In this document: in pieces, positions 31,069 to 36,907 of the stretch
Position numbering within the stretch: position 1 is the stretch's first letter
How the letters are laid out: each line of letters begins with the position of its first letter
Source: Candidatus Spongiisociaceae bacterium
GTDB taxonomy: Bacteria > Actinomycetota > Acidimicrobiia > Spongiisociales > Spongiisociaceae
NCBI GenBank assembly: GCA_965202665.1
Contig: OZ241841.1
Location: 1,996,189 to 2,060,188, forward strand
Direction of reading: 5' to 3'
Length of the DNA: 64,000 bases
Notes under the pieces: generated by a model
The model's database searches: none
What the model saw: only the letters and a program-made list of their open reading frames with translations
What the model was told of the DNA's origin: nothing
Program-made: the position numbers and the translations under genes

Positions 31069-34000
31069 GTGCGCGAGCTGTTCGATGAACTGAAAATTGG
31101 TTTGGCGTCCTCCGATCAGGTGCGGTCCTGGTCGTTCGGGGAGGTGAAGAAGCCGGAGACCATCAACTACCGCAGCTTGAAGCCGGAGAAGGACGGGCTG
31201 TTCGACGAGCGCATTTTCGGTCCGCAGAAGGACTGGGAATGCTACTGCGGCAAATACAAGCGTTTTCGCTACCGGGGCATCGTGTGCGAAAAATGCGGCG
31301 TGGAGGTGACCCGCAAGGATGTGCGCCGGGATCGGATGGGCCACATCGACCTGGCCGCCCCGGTCACCCATATCTGGTTTTTCAAAGGAGTCCCCTCCCG
31401 GTTGGGGTATCTGCTGGACATGTCCCCCAAAAACCTGGAGATGATCATCTACTTTGCGGCCTACGTGATCACGGAAGTGGACGAAGGCAAACGGATGGTG
31501 GATCTGCCCGACCTGGAGGAGCAGATGCGGGCCGAGTTGGAAATTGTGGGGGAGGAGTTGGAGGAGTGGCGGTTGGAGCGGCTGTCCCGGTTGGAGAAGC
31601 AGGTGGAGCAGATGGAGGAGGCGGGGGCCAAGCTGGCGGAGGTGGCCACCGTGCGCCGCGAGGCGGAGCGGGAAATCAAGGATCGGGAGGAGAAAGCGGA
31701 GAAGGAACGCGAGTTGATCAAGGAGAGTTTTGCGGAATTTCGCGAGTTGCGTCCCAAAGATCTGGTGGAGCGGGAGGATTTGTGGAGGGAGATGCACGAA
31801 CGCTACTCGGCCTACTTCGATGGGGGAATGGGGGCGGAGGCGGTGAAGAAATTGCTGTCCAAGGTGGATTTGGACGCCGAGATGGAGGAGTTGCGGGAAG
31901 GTTTGCAATCATCGTCGGCGCAACGGAAACTGCGCTCCGGGCAACGTGTGAAGGTGGTGAAGCCCTTCTGGGAGGGCAAGCATTCGCCGGAGAGCATGAT
32001 TATAGAGGCGGTTCCGGTCATCCCGCCTGAGTTGCGACCCATGGTGCAGTTGGACGGGGGGCGCTTCGCCACCTCCGACCTGAATGACCTGTACCGGCGG
32101 GTGATTAACCGCAACAATCGCCTGAAGCGGCTGTTGGGGTTGAACGCCCCCGAGATCATCATCAACAACGAGAAGCGCATGTTGCAGGAGGCGGTGGACG
32201 CCCTGTTCGACAACGGGCGGCGGGGGCGGGCGGTGCCCGGTACCGGCAATCGTCCCTTGAAGTCTTTGACCGACATGTTGAAGGGCAAAGCGGGGCGGTT
32301 CCGGCAGAACCTGCTGGGGAAGCGAGTGGATTATTCCGGCCGGTCGGTGATCGTGGTGGGCCCGCAGTTGAAGTTGCATCAGTGCGGTTTGCCCAAGGTG
32401 ATGGCGTTGGAGTTGTTCAAGCCGTTCGTGATGAAGCGGCTGGTGGACCGGGATTTGGCGGCCGGCATCAAGGCGGCCAAGCGGATGGTGGAGCGGCAAC
32501 GTCCGCAGGTGTGGGACGTGTTGCGGGAGGTGATACAGGATCATCCGGTGTTGCTCAACCGGGCCCCCACTTTGCACCGGCTGGGGATTCAAGCTTTCGA
32601 ACCGTTGCTGGTGGAAGGCAAAGCCATACAGATTCATCCCCTGGTGTGCGAGGCTTTCAACGCCGACTTCGACGGGGATCAGATGGCGGTGCATCTCCCC
32701 TTGTCTCCGGAGGCGCAGGCCGAGGCGCGGGTGCTGATGCTGTCCACCAACAACGTACGTTCCCCGGCCAGCGGCCATCCCATCGTGTCCCCCTCCCAGG
32801 ACATGGTCATCGGCCTCTACTACCTGTCGGCGAATATCAAAAAAGAAGGCGCCTTGGGGACAGGCCGGTACTTTGCCGATCTGCCGGAGGCGTTGATGGC
32901 CTATGACTTGGGTGAGTTGGAAGTGCACGCCCCGATCAAAATTCGGATGGGCGATATGGCGGGCGACCCGCAGGTGCACGCCGAGCTGAAGGATCTGATC
33001 GGGTATCTGATCACCGACCAACCGGTGGATGGCCAGGTTCCGATGGACACCACTTTGGGCAAGGCCTTACTCAACCAAGCCCTGCCCGCCGATTTCCCGT
33101 TGATCGACGCTCCTTTGTTGAAGAGCGGCATCAAAGACCTGCTCGCTGAGATCATCGACCGCTACGACAAGGCGGTGGTGCAACGCACTCTGGACGGGCT
33201 CAAGGATTTGGGTTTCGCCTTTTCCACCCAGGCGGGGCTCACCGTGGGTTTGAACGATGTGACCACCCCGCTCGACAAGCCGAAGATACTTAACGAGGCG
33301 GAGGACAGGGCGCAGAAGAAGGAACGAGAGTACCAGCAGGGGAGCATTACCGCCCAGGAACGGGATCAGGAGTTAGTGGAGATTTGGAGCGAAGCCACCG
33401 AAGAGTTAACCCAGAAGGTGCGCACTTCCCTGTCCGATCAGGACTTCAACCCCATTGATATGATGATGAGCTCCGGCGCCCGGGGCAACATCATGCAGGT
33501 GCGCCAGATAGCCGGTATTCGCGGCTTGGTGGCTAACAACCGCGGACGCATCATCCCCCGGCCCATCAGGTCTAATTTCCGAGAGGGGATGACTGTGCTG
33601 GAGTATTTCATGTCCACGCACGGGGCCCGCAAAGGTCTGACCGACACCGCTCTGAAAACCGCCGACGCTGGTTATCTGACCCGCCGCCTGGTGGATGTGT
33701 CCCAAGAGATTATCGTCTCCGAAGAGGAATCGGAGGATCGGGGCATCGACATCCGCGTACGGGATGCAAAAGGCGATACCCTCCCCGACTTGCGCAACCG
33801 CATCTACGGGCGGGTGTTGGCCGAAGATGTGAAAGTGGATTACAAGTTGCGTATCACCCGCCCCGGTGATTCCAACTTCGAAGCTGGCCAAACCGTGGAG
33901 TTCACGAAGTTTGCGTCCGTCAAACGGGAGTTGTTGGAGGCTGGCAAAAAACCGGCCGAAGGTCGGCCGACGGGAGGTAAAACGGCCCTTACCAAGGATG

Positions 34001-35925
34001 GCGTGGCTCTGGAGGCGGGGGCGGTGATTGACCGCAAGGTGATGGTGGAACTGCAGGCTATGCCGGAAGTCGACTCGGTGCGGGTGCGTTCCCCGCTCAC
34101 CGACGAGATCCGGCACGGCATCAGCCGCGCTTCCTACGGGCTGAGCATGTCCACCAACCAACTGGCGGAACCGGGCGAGGCGGTGGGGGTGATGGCCGCC
34201 CAGTCCATCGGCGAGCCGGGCACGCAGCTGACCATGCGCACCTTTCATACCGGGGGGGTGGCCGATGAAACGGATATCACCCACGGCCTGCCCCGGGTGG
34301 TGGAGTTGTTCGAAGCCCGCTCCCCCAAGGGAAAGGCCATCTTGGCCGAGGCCAGCGGAAAAGTGCGCATTGACGATGGTGAAGAGGGGGTGCGCGCTTT
34401 GGTAATCGAATCCCCCCGGAGCGGGGAAGTCAAATACCGCTTGTCCCCCAACGCCCGGTTGCGGCCCGGGGTGCGAGAGGGGGGTGAAGTCGCCGCCGGA
34501 GATCAACTTACCGAAGGGCCGTTGGATCCCAAAGAGGTGTGCCTCATCAGAGGAGTGCGGGCCTGTCAGCAGTATCTGGTGGATCAGGTGCAGGATGTGT
34601 ACCGCAACCAGGGGGTGGAGATTCACGACAAGCACATCGAGCTGATCGTGCGGCAGATGTTGCGCAAAGTGCGCATCATCGAGCCCAACGACACCGATTT
34701 TCTGCCCATGCAGATGGTGGATCAGGGAGAGTTCCGGGACACCAACCGGGAGTTGGCGGCCGCGGGCAAGCAACCGGCCGAGGGCCGTCCGGAGCTGATG
34801 GGGATCACCAAGGCCTCGCTGGCTACCGAGTCCTGGTTGTCGGCCGCATCCTTCCAGGAAACCAGCCGCGTGCTCACCGAGGCGGCCATCAACGGACGCT
34901 CCGACTACCTGCGGGGACTGAAGGAGAACGTGATCATCGGCAAGCTGATTCCGGCCGGCACCGGTTCCGATGAATACCAGAAACTCCAACCCGAGCTGTC
35001 CCAGGCGCAGATAACACCCCCCTTGACCGGAGCCGACTGGTTGGCCGTGCGGGAGATGGAAGTATTCACCGAAGAGGTCGCCGGTGAGGCCGAGGATAAG
35101 GCCGCCCAAGCCGAGGAGGCCCGGGCCAGGGCGGAGGAGAAAAAGGCGGAGGTGAACGCCGCCACTGACGATGCCGAGAAATATACTTTGAGGAGGGAAA
35201 GAGACGAAGAATATGAACGGGCCGCCCGCTATGACCGGGAGGCGGCCGAGGAGGAGGAGCGGGCCGCGGCCCGCAAGTTGGCCCATGCCCAAGCGAAGGC
35301 GGAGGAGGCCGAGGAAGCCGAAGCGGCCGCCCAGGAGAAAGAGTTGGAACAGGCTCGCAAAGAGGCGGAAAAGGCCCGGCAAGCGGTGGAGAAGGCCCGG
35401 GAGAAGGAAGACAAGGCCGCCAAAACGCGCCGGGAGAGGGCCGCCAAAGAGGCGCAAAAATGGAAGGATCGGGCACAGCGGGCATTGCGAGAGGCCGAAG
35501 GGAAGCAGAAGCAGGTGGCTGATAAAACGGAGCAGGCTAAAGCCGCGCTGGATATAAGCGCAAAGGTGGATTTGGCGCGGCAGGTCGTGTCTGAATCCGA
35601 GAAGGTGATCCAAGGCGTACGGGAAGCGAGGAAAGCGGCAACGGTAGCCCAGGAGGCTGAAGTTAAGGCTGAGCTGGAAGATACAGAAGCGCCGCAGGTA
35701 ATAGAGGACGCCGAACAGGTGATCCTAGATGTGGAGCAAAAGGTTCAGGAGTTGCGGGCCTCGCTGGATGCTCCCCAACAGGATGCGGGAGCTATTGACA
35801 GATCCCTCGACGAGAACCGCGAGTCCTTGACGAGGATGGCCGTTACCTTGCAGAAGTTCACCGACTGGTTGAAAAAAATCGGCGAGCTCGTCGCCGATGC
35901 CCTAAAGAAACTGCTGGGAGGGTAA
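31069..35925 (+). CDS. rpoC: DNA-directed RNA polymerase subunit beta', carrying a ~330-aa K/E/A/R-rich coiled-coil C-terminal extension
   Basis: Canonical RpoC through ...[14 protein letters not shown] (about residue 1280), then a low-complexity charged tail to residue 1618. GTG start. Confidence 0.9.
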
Positions 35926-35927
35926 GA

Positions 35928-36284
35928 TTGTCGTACGGGGAATCTCTTAACCCGCTTCAGCTTTTTGGGGCGGCGCCCTTCGCTGGCCACGAGGGCAATC
36001 CGGCGGACTTCTCCCGTACGCTTAACGCTGTTCGGATTGGCGTTTCATGGAAGGGTCCTTTCAGTGATGCCATACAACTCATCGAGGCCGCTACTAAGTT
36101 GCCCGTGACGGCCGGCGGGGAGTTGGAGGGGCATATGGCGATCGCGGCGGGGAAAGCCATCGAGGCGGTAATGGGGCAAGTCTTTGAACTGCAGGCGGAG
36201 GCGCGCCGGTGCTTTTCTGCGGAGGCCATCGCCCATGCCGAGCGATGGCTGGCGGAAAACAGCCCCGCTGGAAACGGACGATGA
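35928..36284 (+). CDS. hypothetical protein (118 aa) immediately downstream of rpoC
   Basis: Open frame with a TTG start 3 nt after the rpoC stop. No recognisable motif. Its 5' part has atypical AT-richer codons. Confidence 0.25.
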   Translation: MSYGESLNPLQLFGAAPFAGHEGNPADFSRTLNAVRIGVSWKGPFSDAIQLIEAATKLPVTAGGELEGHMAIAAGKAIEAVMGQVFELQAEARRCFSAEAIAHAERWLAENSPAGNGR

Positions 36285-36316
36285 GGCGCGTGGCGGTTGC
36301 GAAAGGGGTCCCTGTT

Positions 36317-36346
36317 TTGACATAGCGGCGGGCCGGTCTGTATAAT
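36317..36346 (+). promoter_or_regulatory. consensus sigma-70/SigA-type promoter of the rpsL-rpsG-fusA-tuf operon
   Basis: TTGACA (36317-36322), 18 nt, TATAAT (36341-36346). Followed by a ~190-nt leader before rpsL. Confidence 0.55.
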
Positions 36347-36535
36347 GCGGGCCGTGCTTGCGCACATATTTACTCTCGTGCCCTGAGGGCCGGTGGTCCC
36401 GCCGCTGGCAACCGCAAGGTGGCGGGAACCCACACAAGAGAGTTGGCGCGTCGCATCGCCGGCGGGCCGATTACAGAAAACGAACGGGCAGGGTTGCCCG
36501 CGTCTTGCGCGCCTGCCCGCCCGCGAGGAGCAATT

Positions 36536-36907
36536 TTGCCAACCATACAACAGTTGGTGCGCCGGGGCCGCAAGCCCAAGGCGCGCAAGGAGAAGACGCC
36601 GGGTCTGGCCGGTTCCCCCCAGCGGCGGGGGGTGTGCACCCGCGTCTACATCATCACCCCCAAAAAGCCCAACTCCGCCCAGCGCAAAGCGTGCCGGGTG
36701 CGGCTCACCTCGGGAGTGGAGGTGACCGCCTACATCCCCGGCGAGGGGCACAACCTGCAGGAGCATTCCATCGTGCTCATCCGGGGCGGCCGGGTGCGCG
36801 ACTTGCCCGGGGTGCGTTACAAGGTCATCCGGGGGGCTTTGGATGCGGCCGGCGTGGACGGCCGCCGTCAGGCCCGTTCCCGCTACGGAACGAAACGGGA
36901 GCGATAA
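36536..36907 (+). CDS. rpsL: 30S ribosomal protein S12
   Basis: [12 protein letters not shown]...; TTG start after a GAGGAG RBS. Confidence 0.9.

Follow-up and report, generated by a model that had tools for sequence, protein, structure and literature searches.

A predicted stalk-and-head extension of the RNA polymerase beta' subunit in a clade of uncultured Acidimicrobiia

Introduction

Few molecular machines are as conserved as RNA polymerase (RNAP). The beta and beta' subunits of the bacterial enzyme nonetheless carry lineage-specific insertions, including the beta' clamp insertion of Actinobacteria known from mycobacterial RNAP structures, SI3 of Escherichia coli and Si3 of cyanobacteria, and such additions have repeatedly proved to be regulatory handles, as is the case for SI3 and the actinobacterial clamp insertion. 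Here we analyze the rpoC gene, which encodes beta', in a stretch of 64,000 nucleotides (henceforth the window) from a Candidatus Spongiisociaceae bacterium (Actinomycetota; Acidimicrobiia; assembly GCA_965202665.1, contig OZ241841.1, positions 1,996,189 to 2,060,188 of the forward strand). Its reading frame continues far beyond the conserved end of beta' into a long charged tail, which a preliminary description of the window had taken either for a lineage-specific appendage or for an inserted gene fused in frame.

Like the known RNAP insertions, this tail is clade-restricted, mostly helical as predicted, kept by selection and attached to a universally conserved subunit, and it would be surface-exposed, since the beta' C-terminus is located next to omega at the surface of the polymerase. 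The known insertions, however, are internal and folded against the enzyme, whereas the tail adds about 270 residues at the C-terminus, in the predicted form of a long free rod with a terminal domain. Our analysis of the locus and its relatives indicates that the tail is a genuine, selectively maintained and clade-wide appendage of beta', open in frame and modular, with a stalk and a head. A literature search returned no description of a beta' C-terminal extension of this kind.

Results

Beta' of the window continues for 319 residues past its conserved end

The rpoC gene occupies positions 31069-35925 of the window (on the + strand, like all features below unless stated otherwise) and encodes a protein of 1618 residues, ending at a TAA stop at 35923-35925. 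Its translation contains Rpb1 domains 1 to 5 in order (PF04997, PF00623, PF04983, PF05000 and PF04998, all above the Pfam cut-offs, the last ending at residue 1252) and the catalytic NADFDGD-type motif of beta'. In the window rpoB-rpoC are followed by rpsL-rpsG-fusA-tuf, and gene calls on L081 and L098 agree with this order (L and P numbers are our labels for loci and proteins). The conserved core, residues 1-1299, runs from a GTG start to the motif GKLIPAGTG (31069..34965), and 319 residues follow it; the preliminary description had rightly seen a K/E/A/R-rich tail here, but had put its length at about 330 residues.

By comparison, RpoC continues for only 34-88 residues after the motif in all 80 actinobacterial loci that we recovered. 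The five nearest Acidimicrobiia among them (L001-L005) have tails of 57-64 residues ending in an acidic run, and the nearest GTDB genomes, 68-74% identical to the window across the last 300 core residues of RpoC (68-72% for the closest species representatives), have tails of 57-65 residues. The first 45 or so residues of the window's tail (34966..35100) match this ordinary short Acidimicrobiia tail motif by motif (YQxLQPxL, then ADWLA, then an acidic end, as in L001-L005), and the extra part therefore amounts to about 273 residues, beginning near 35101. Within it we distinguish an E/K/R/A-rich stalk (tail residues 46-193, 35101..35544), which is part of a predicted helix starting at residue 22, and a head (tail residues 194-319, 35545..35922) that is AT-richer, faster-evolving and predicted to form three amphipathic helices. 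The last 25 residues of the head (35848..35922) are nearly invariant and more amphipathic than any other segment of the tail.

The rpoC frame is the best of the six coding frames all along the tail. A frame of 735 codons on the opposite strand (33406-35613, - strand), lying over rpoC and most of the tail, has a negative coding score and was dismissed as a shadow open reading frame (ORF) of GC-rich DNA. Inside the core, a second charged helical segment spans RpoC residues ~140-300 (window about 31480-31970), where the local GC skew is very high (0.36-0.47); from its position we take it to be the actinobacterial clamp insertion.

An in-frame homologous tail in every relative traced

The short ORF of 118 codons that follows rpoC (henceforth ORF118) offered one handle for tracing relatives. 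An exact look-up of ORF118 returned nine contigs, and the six listed belong to ENA and Logan assemblies made from different samples. Identity to the window is 99.1-99.8% in the listed contigs, all of which have an open rpoC frame that ends at the window's stop, and gaps in rpoC are confined to one contig of 2x coverage. The organism is abundant in some samples, for example that behind ERZ25070167, with 383x coverage. Within a 20-member cluster at 90% identity, 14 of the 15 members listed have 1618 residues and the other is a fragment of 508 residues. A sequencing error that removed a stop, which had been considered at the outset, is thus excluded by several independent assemblies with the same frame.

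Through ORF118 homologues at 64-70% identity we reached further species (L088, L093, L095 and L097), whose RpoC has 1614 residues or is truncated by the contig end. The tails of these sister lineages are exactly 319 residues long and 82-84% identical to that of the window, without an indel, at a core identity of 94% between L088 and the window; across 12 tails of the window's genus, neither the stalk nor the tail as a whole contains an indel. A look-up of the identical S12 protein found RpoC of 1614-1649 residues in 10 of 10 places. In one of these, L099, which lies on a circular contig of 3.17 Mb and has an RpoC core 85% identical to that of the window, the tail is homologous as well (353 residues, 48% identity) and ends in the same helix, but it is lengthened by one insertion of 24 and one of 9 residues. 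The 24-residue insertion lies in the stalk, whose length thus varies between genera while being invariant within the window's genus.

The 90% cluster around L099 includes five RpoC proteins of 1498 residues (P0031, P0032, P0034, P0036 and P0038). The one that we located, P0032 (L108, 5001-9497), lacks the head: its tail of 202 residues keeps the first ~178, at 81% nucleotide identity to L099. Compared with L099, about 515 nucleotides for the distal stalk and head are missing from L108, and a short acidic end takes their place, just before the same rpsL promoter. The tail is thus a feature of an Acidimicrobiia clade that spans at least two genus-level groups, one lineage of which has lost the head, and it is fixed in this family-level clade of uncultured bacteria. 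Of the two explanations offered earlier, the lineage-specific appendage is supported by finding a homologous tail, in frame and under purifying selection, in every relative traced through ORF118 or the identical S12. The preliminary description had itself held that a tail shared by close relatives would be a clade feature rather than an insertion, and this is the distribution that we find.

Purifying selection on stalk and head

In the better-sampled comparison, between the window and L103-L105, the synonymous substitution rate (dS) is about 0.13 in all parts of rpoC. The ratio of nonsynonymous to synonymous rates (dN/dS) rises from 0.07 in the core and 0.08 over tail residues 1-180 to 0.25-0.37 over tail residues 181-319. 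By these ratios the stalk is constrained, over short time, as strongly as the enzyme core, and the head evolves about four times faster, yet under purifying selection. The equal dS of tail and core gives no sign of a separate history. Against L088, L095 and L097, dN/dS is 0.22-0.25 in the extension and 0.07-0.14 in the last 161 core codons; the dS of the extension is about 0.42 and neutrality is rejected (binomial p = 3e-11).

Among strains of ~99% identity the head is a hotspot, with 14-17 differences per 420 nucleotides, half of them non-synonymous. The differences cluster at 35776-35823, and the proximal tail, ORF118 and the spacer are without differences among the same strains. Local recombination or diversifying change could account for this patch. 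It includes the four adjacent bases 35812-35815, which change from GAGA to AGCC, and it turns DENR of the head into DSHR or DNHR.

A predicted long charged helix ending in a helical bundle

Modeling of the tail as a single sequence with AlphaFold2 (AF2) gave a mean predicted local distance difference test score (pLDDT) of 83.7. Tail residues 2-22 are predicted to be disordered (pLDDT below 50), residues 22-193 to form one helix (pLDDT mostly 83-94) and the head to add helices at 197-234, 242-268 and 274-317. With the tail as query, Foldseek aligned about 145 columns to PDB entries that were all generic or designed four-helix bundles, and a sequence-profile search of the PDB found only designed coiled coils and an IF1 helix. 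In the model, the head and the end of the long helix probably form an up-and-down four-helix bundle, which would leave ~130 residues (~19 nm) as a free rod.

The stalk (residues 46-180) consists of 28% acidic residues, 26% basic residues, 29% alanine and 7% bulky hydrophobic residues. Bulky hydrophobics occupy 12-25% of its a and d positions in the best register, as against fractions of 0.6-0.9 in the head (194-319), and counting alanine brings the stalk to 0.5-0.88. The stalk is not a canonical hydrophobic-core coiled coil, and the heptad-like pattern first attributed to the charged part fails on these same values. Rather, it looks like a charged single alpha-helix (SAH) or an EAAAK-like rigid linker: as is typical of ER/K SAHs, E, K and R dominate over a long stretch that has very few hydrophobics, and AF2 renders the stalk as part of the one helix 22-193. 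Like-charge pairs at i to i+4 are slightly depleted in the stalk (14, vs 18.8 in shuffles), and the tail has a conserved net charge of -14 to -24. A basic patch on the distal stalk, entertained as a conserved nucleic-acid binder, was dropped because it is absent in L099.

The terminal helix holds the tail's maximum of hydrophobic moment (0.63-0.65, at a mean hydrophobicity of 0.08-0.16, over the last 18-20 residues). Across the window's genus the last 25 residues show few differences (D/N, A/V, L/V), and in L099 they are 56% identical and retain K, D, K, E, D and KK.

Codon usage of the distal tail

The G+C content at third codon positions (GC3) falls from 0.81 in the core to 0.73 in tail residues 61-180 and 0.66 in tail residues 181-319, and is 0.68 in ORF118. 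Among equal-sized windows from confident genes of the 64-kb stretch, tail residues 181-319 and ORF118 lie in the lowest 0.5-0.8% (0.5% for the distal tail), and the synonymous-codon log-likelihood of the distal tail and ORF118 is about 0, vs 0.50 +/- 0.12. These measures bear out the AT-richer codons reported from ~35530 onward: the distal tail is enriched in ATA, CTA, ACA, GTA, GTT and GCT, with CTA, for example, found in none of the 1299 core codons and in 2 of 139 of the distal tail. TTA, which had also been named, is absent from the distal tail. Likewise, the composition said to be common to distal tail and ORF118 is borne out by their GC3, but the two have separate histories, as judged from L099 (see below).

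The GC3 of the head is strongly lowered only in the window's own lineage (0.64-0.67), with a mild dip in the sister species and L099 (0.71-0.78). Since the strong dip is confined to this lineage and the dS of the tail equals that of the core, relaxed codon selection fits better than a foreign origin, and the AT-richer codons are most likely due to a looser constraint on codons and amino acids in a young head that evolves fast.

Homologue searches and internal repeats

A HMMER search with the extension against 1.84 billion representatives found no homologue, although clustering at 50% identity may hide RpoC-fused tails behind tail-less representatives. Its sole match, P0001 (E = 3.7e-14), is a protein of 3000 residues made of near-identical tandem repeats of ~170 residues, and we regard it as spurious, 17 copies of one weak match having been summed. 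Repeat proteins thus call for caution in HMMER scans of whole libraries. Pattern scans of GTDB species genomes, JGI metagenomes and IMG/VR with the tail or the tail alignment found no homologue either; one JGI metagenome scan used low-complexity patterns and gave none among the matches listed, a weak negative. No family for the extension was found in Pfam, PHROGs, NCBIfam or PADLOC. Three more candidate relationships were rejected, namely the head as a diverged ORF118 domain (hhalign probability 0.2%), the head as a fused omega subunit (no Pfam Rpb6 match) and, as a free-standing tail, proteins of 211-219 residues upstream of distant ORF118 homologues, which proved to be tandem double ORF118 domains.

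The extension does contain repeats of its own. The stalk carries tandem repeats of a 9-bp unit (x3.7) and a 21-bp unit (x3) at 35297-35329 and 35339-35400, and a repeat of 38 residues in the head (35575-35614 and 35689-35728) connects two of the head helices. All these internal repeats are in frame, with spacings that include 21, 63, 114 and 315 nucleotides. Neither repeats flanking the extension nor an integrase or transposase between rpoC and rpsL were found. The in-frame repeats, the lack of flanking repeats and mobility genes, and the equal dS favor growth in place over capture. The extension most likely grew in this way, the capture of a foreign gene being less likely: the ancestral stop after the acidic end would have been lost, and short helix-coding units would then have been duplicated in frame.

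ORF118 is a clade-restricted gene with a history of its own

ORF118 (35928-36284) has 118 codons and a TTG start, lies in a different frame from rpoC and is predicted to be all-helical. It begins 2 nucleotides after the TAA, not 3 as first counted. At the junction GGGAGGG-TAA-GA-TTG (35916..35930), the last two glycine codons of rpoC form the Shine-Dalgarno sequence of ORF118, GGGAGGG, 5 nucleotides before the TTG, and this arrangement is kept in L093, L095 and L097. Because the Shine-Dalgarno sequence is conserved and lies inside the end of rpoC, translation of ORF118 is probably coupled to that of rpoC. A terminator was looked for between the two genes, and none was found.

We found 11 homologues of ORF118 at 45-98% identity, a small clade-restricted family with two invariant motifs, GGELEGHMAIAAG and FS.{2}AIA.AE.WL (FSPEAIAHAExWL in most members, FSAEAIAHAERWL in the window). 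Searches of Pfam, PHROG, NCBIfam and PADLOC with ORF118 were negative; AF2 models it as four helices (pLDDT 77.8), for which Foldseek found no fold match in the PDB. Of the six frames in its region its own scores best, if weakly so, and its dN/dS is 0.13-0.60. ORF118 is a real gene, clade-restricted, under weaker constraint and with a separate history.

In L099 the rpsL promoter directly follows the rpoC stop, with no ORF in between. That genome instead carries three ORF118-type domains, in a double-domain protein of 211 residues and a protein of 108 residues, about 2.1 Mb from rpoC and adjoining an ABC transporter operon and methyltransferase, Fic and AAA_23 genes. In genomes of the L099 type (L087, 6326-7722; L091, 6338-7327) we observed an array of a double-domain protein of 211-219 residues followed by a single-domain one of 108 residues, next to genes for an N6/N4 methyltransferase-HNH protein, a Fic-like protein, an AAA_23 protein and an SLH-domain protein, a setting that resembles a variable island.

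Several close relatives have altered ORF118 alleles. In L106 an in-frame TAG at codon 67 (about 6090) falls within the invariant GGELEGHM motif, in L103 a 1-nucleotide insertion near the 3' end changes the C-terminus, and L105 has a 3-nucleotide deletion. Being absent from the locus in L099 and broken in L106 and L103, ORF118 cannot be an obligatory partner of the tail. Every traced member of the ORF118 family comes from a tail-bearing genome, a co-occurrence that, in so narrow a clade, is only a hint.

The rpsL promoter and leader

The variable segment after rpoC is bounded downstream by a perfect TTGACA-18-TATAAT promoter of the rpsL-rpsG-fusA-tuf operon (36317..36346, score 12/12), which is conserved in the sister species and in L099. 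The operon opens with rpsL, at a TTG start at 36536, followed by rpsG, fusA and tuf. The rpsL leader between promoter and start (36347-36535, ~190 nucleotides) is better conserved across species than ORF118 (L088, L093, L095, L099, L103 and L108), and its consensus fold has multiple hairpins with 50 pairs, four of which show compensatory changes. A search of 34900-36700 against Rfam gave no match. The leader may be a ribosomal-protein operon leader.

Discussion

Because the tail has the shape of an appendage and sits at a surface site beside omega, we think it rather probable, going by the model, that it serves as a tethered docking appendage on beta'. A flexible linker of ~20 residues would follow the conserved beta' end and lead into the long E/K/R/A-rich helix, whose ~130 free residues (roughly 19 nm) would act as a rigid spacer. 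The helix would terminate in a bundle of ~125-170 residues closed by the near-invariant amphipathic helix, and the rod would keep this small docking head a fixed length away from the polymerase. The head might then recruit a partner to the transcribing polymerase, or position the polymerase itself. In the window's genus the prime candidate for such a partner, though not an obligatory one, would be the translationally coupled ORF118 protein. A bolder version, in which the arm of rod and head, evolved from no recognizable precursor, would recruit clade-specific factors near the omega and RNA exit side, with the ORF118 family as first candidates, and would so be a bacterial counterpart in principle of the C-terminal domain (CTD) of RNA polymerase II, seems to us doubtful.

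A number of observations weigh against the docking appendage and the growth in place that we favor for it. The stalk model was built on one sequence alone, and charged low-complexity stretches tend to come out of AF2 as confident helix; in the stalk, moreover, pairs of opposite charge at i to i+4 show no enrichment over shuffles (22, vs 19.3 +/- 3.4), which makes the SAH reading a tentative one. At least one lineage, that of L108, does without the head, and four further members of its cluster have a stalk-only RpoC of 1498 residues. The candidate partner is absent from the locus in L099, and its gene carries a nonsense mutation in L106 and a frameshift in L103. As to origin, the 50% clustering behind the HMMER search may have hidden other RpoC-fused tails, and in the comparison with L088, L095 and L097 the dS of the tail exceeds that of the last 161 core codons (0.15-0.31). 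This higher dS fits weaker codon constraint, and a different history stays compatible with it.

Two other accounts concern where the tail came from. A foreign or mobile cassette of two genes, a helical protein and ORF118, could have entered the variable spacer between rpoC and rpsL, the first gene then being fused to rpoC by loss of its stop. The rpoC-rpsL interval is indeed variable in Actinobacteria (0.1-4.4 kb among relatives), the extension is an orphan, distal tail and ORF118 have low GC3 and unusual codons in common, and the ORF118-family genes that lie beside methyltransferase-HNH, Fic and AAA_23 genes in L087 and L091 have a GC3 below that of their neighbors. Yet no free-standing homologue of the extension that could stand for a donor turned up in the collections searched, every traced relative in the two genus-level groups has the tail, and L099 and L108 have it without an adjacent ORF118. 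The gene before the ORF118 homologue in L087 and L091 is a tandem double ORF118 domain and not tail-like, and the profile comparison of tail and ORF118 was negative. With tail dS equal to core dS, no flanking repeats and a weak GC3 dip in the sister species, we consider the fused gene proposed in the preliminary description improbable. An artefact or neutral read-through, that is, a stop lost by sequencing or assembly error or a recent stop loss exposing non-functional sequence, might be suspected of an orphan of low complexity and below-average codon adaptation, long open frames arising by chance in GC-rich genomes. We reject it as having next to no chance of being right, since short-read and long-read assemblies from different samples independently agree, the tail has been conserved across two genera and several species at a dN/dS of 0.08-0.37, and 12 sequences show no indels over 319 residues.

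Two further accounts give the tail another role. The terminal amphipathic helix could bind membrane in the manner of the MinD and FtsA targeting helices, so that the rod would anchor some RNAP near the envelope. Like those helices (MinD ends in KKGFLKRLFGG), it is amphipathic, sits at the extreme C-terminus with lysine pairs on both sides and ends in GG. Its moment of 0.63-0.65 is the highest in the tail, at moderate hydrophobicity, and it is the best-conserved segment of the head. It differs from them in being predicted within a bundle (pLDDT 86-92) and in its conserved acidic residues, and we see no homology; those residues of the polar face, invariant even in L099, suggest a specific protein contact over lipid. 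The GG codons, moreover, are under a second constraint as part of the ORF118 Shine-Dalgarno sequence, and L108 has lost the whole head, terminal helix included. A membrane or surface tether is accordingly hard to credit. Finally, heads or alanine-rich stalks could pair polymerases into dimers or clusters, for storage or hibernation, or the net-negative rod could be a steric or electrostatic spacer. The conserved net charge, the invariant stalk length within the genus and the stalk kept alone in L108, where the rod may itself function, are consistent with this idea, and alanine at many a and d positions could permit weak pairing of the alacoil type; the stalk, however, has no hydrophobic seam, and its length differs between genera by the insertion in L099. 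Self-association or spacing is, in our estimate, quite unlikely.

As a case in which a sizeable structured domain arose in place on a protein that is essential and highly expressed, the tail would illustrate that a foreign-looking codon signature can stem from a young, weakly constrained segment instead of from transfer. Its natural variants map the modules, since stalk alone, stalk with head, and forms with and without the coupled small gene all occur. Were the tail a CTD-like arm, it would represent a mode of regulating or coupling transcription not yet described in bacteria, for which the head-less lineage of L108 and the ORF118-null alleles would be ready genetic controls.

Comparison with known systems

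The addition is large (200-350 residues) and its site unusual, the extreme C-terminus of beta', which topologically is the position of the eukaryotic CTD. Like the CTD of Rpb1, the eukaryotic homologue of beta', it lengthens the largest subunit beyond its last conserved region, and it offers a conceptual parallel as a tethered platform for bringing factors to the enzyme during transcription, an analogy without homology; that CTD, however, consists of disordered YSPTSPS heptads regulated by phosphorylation, whereas the tail has no such repeats and is predicted to form a rigid helix and a bundle. The stalk shares with the ER/K SAHs of myosin VI, myosin X and caldesmon, and with engineered EAAAK linkers, its E/K/R/A composition, the lack of a hydrophobic seam and the stand-alone helix of the AF2 model. 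Unlike ER/K SAHs, its opposite-charge i to i+4 pairs do not rise above shuffles, and its alanine content of 29% is above that of familiar ER/K examples. Like the rpoB-rpoC fusion of Helicobacter and Wolbachia, the tail would represent a change of frame in the rpoBC operon by stop loss that became fixed in a clade, but that fusion joins two conserved subunits, whereas the added tail matches no protein that we found. The tail thus belongs to the lineage-specific additions to RNAP, and differs from those described in its site, in its rod-plus-head architecture and in having no detectable homologue.

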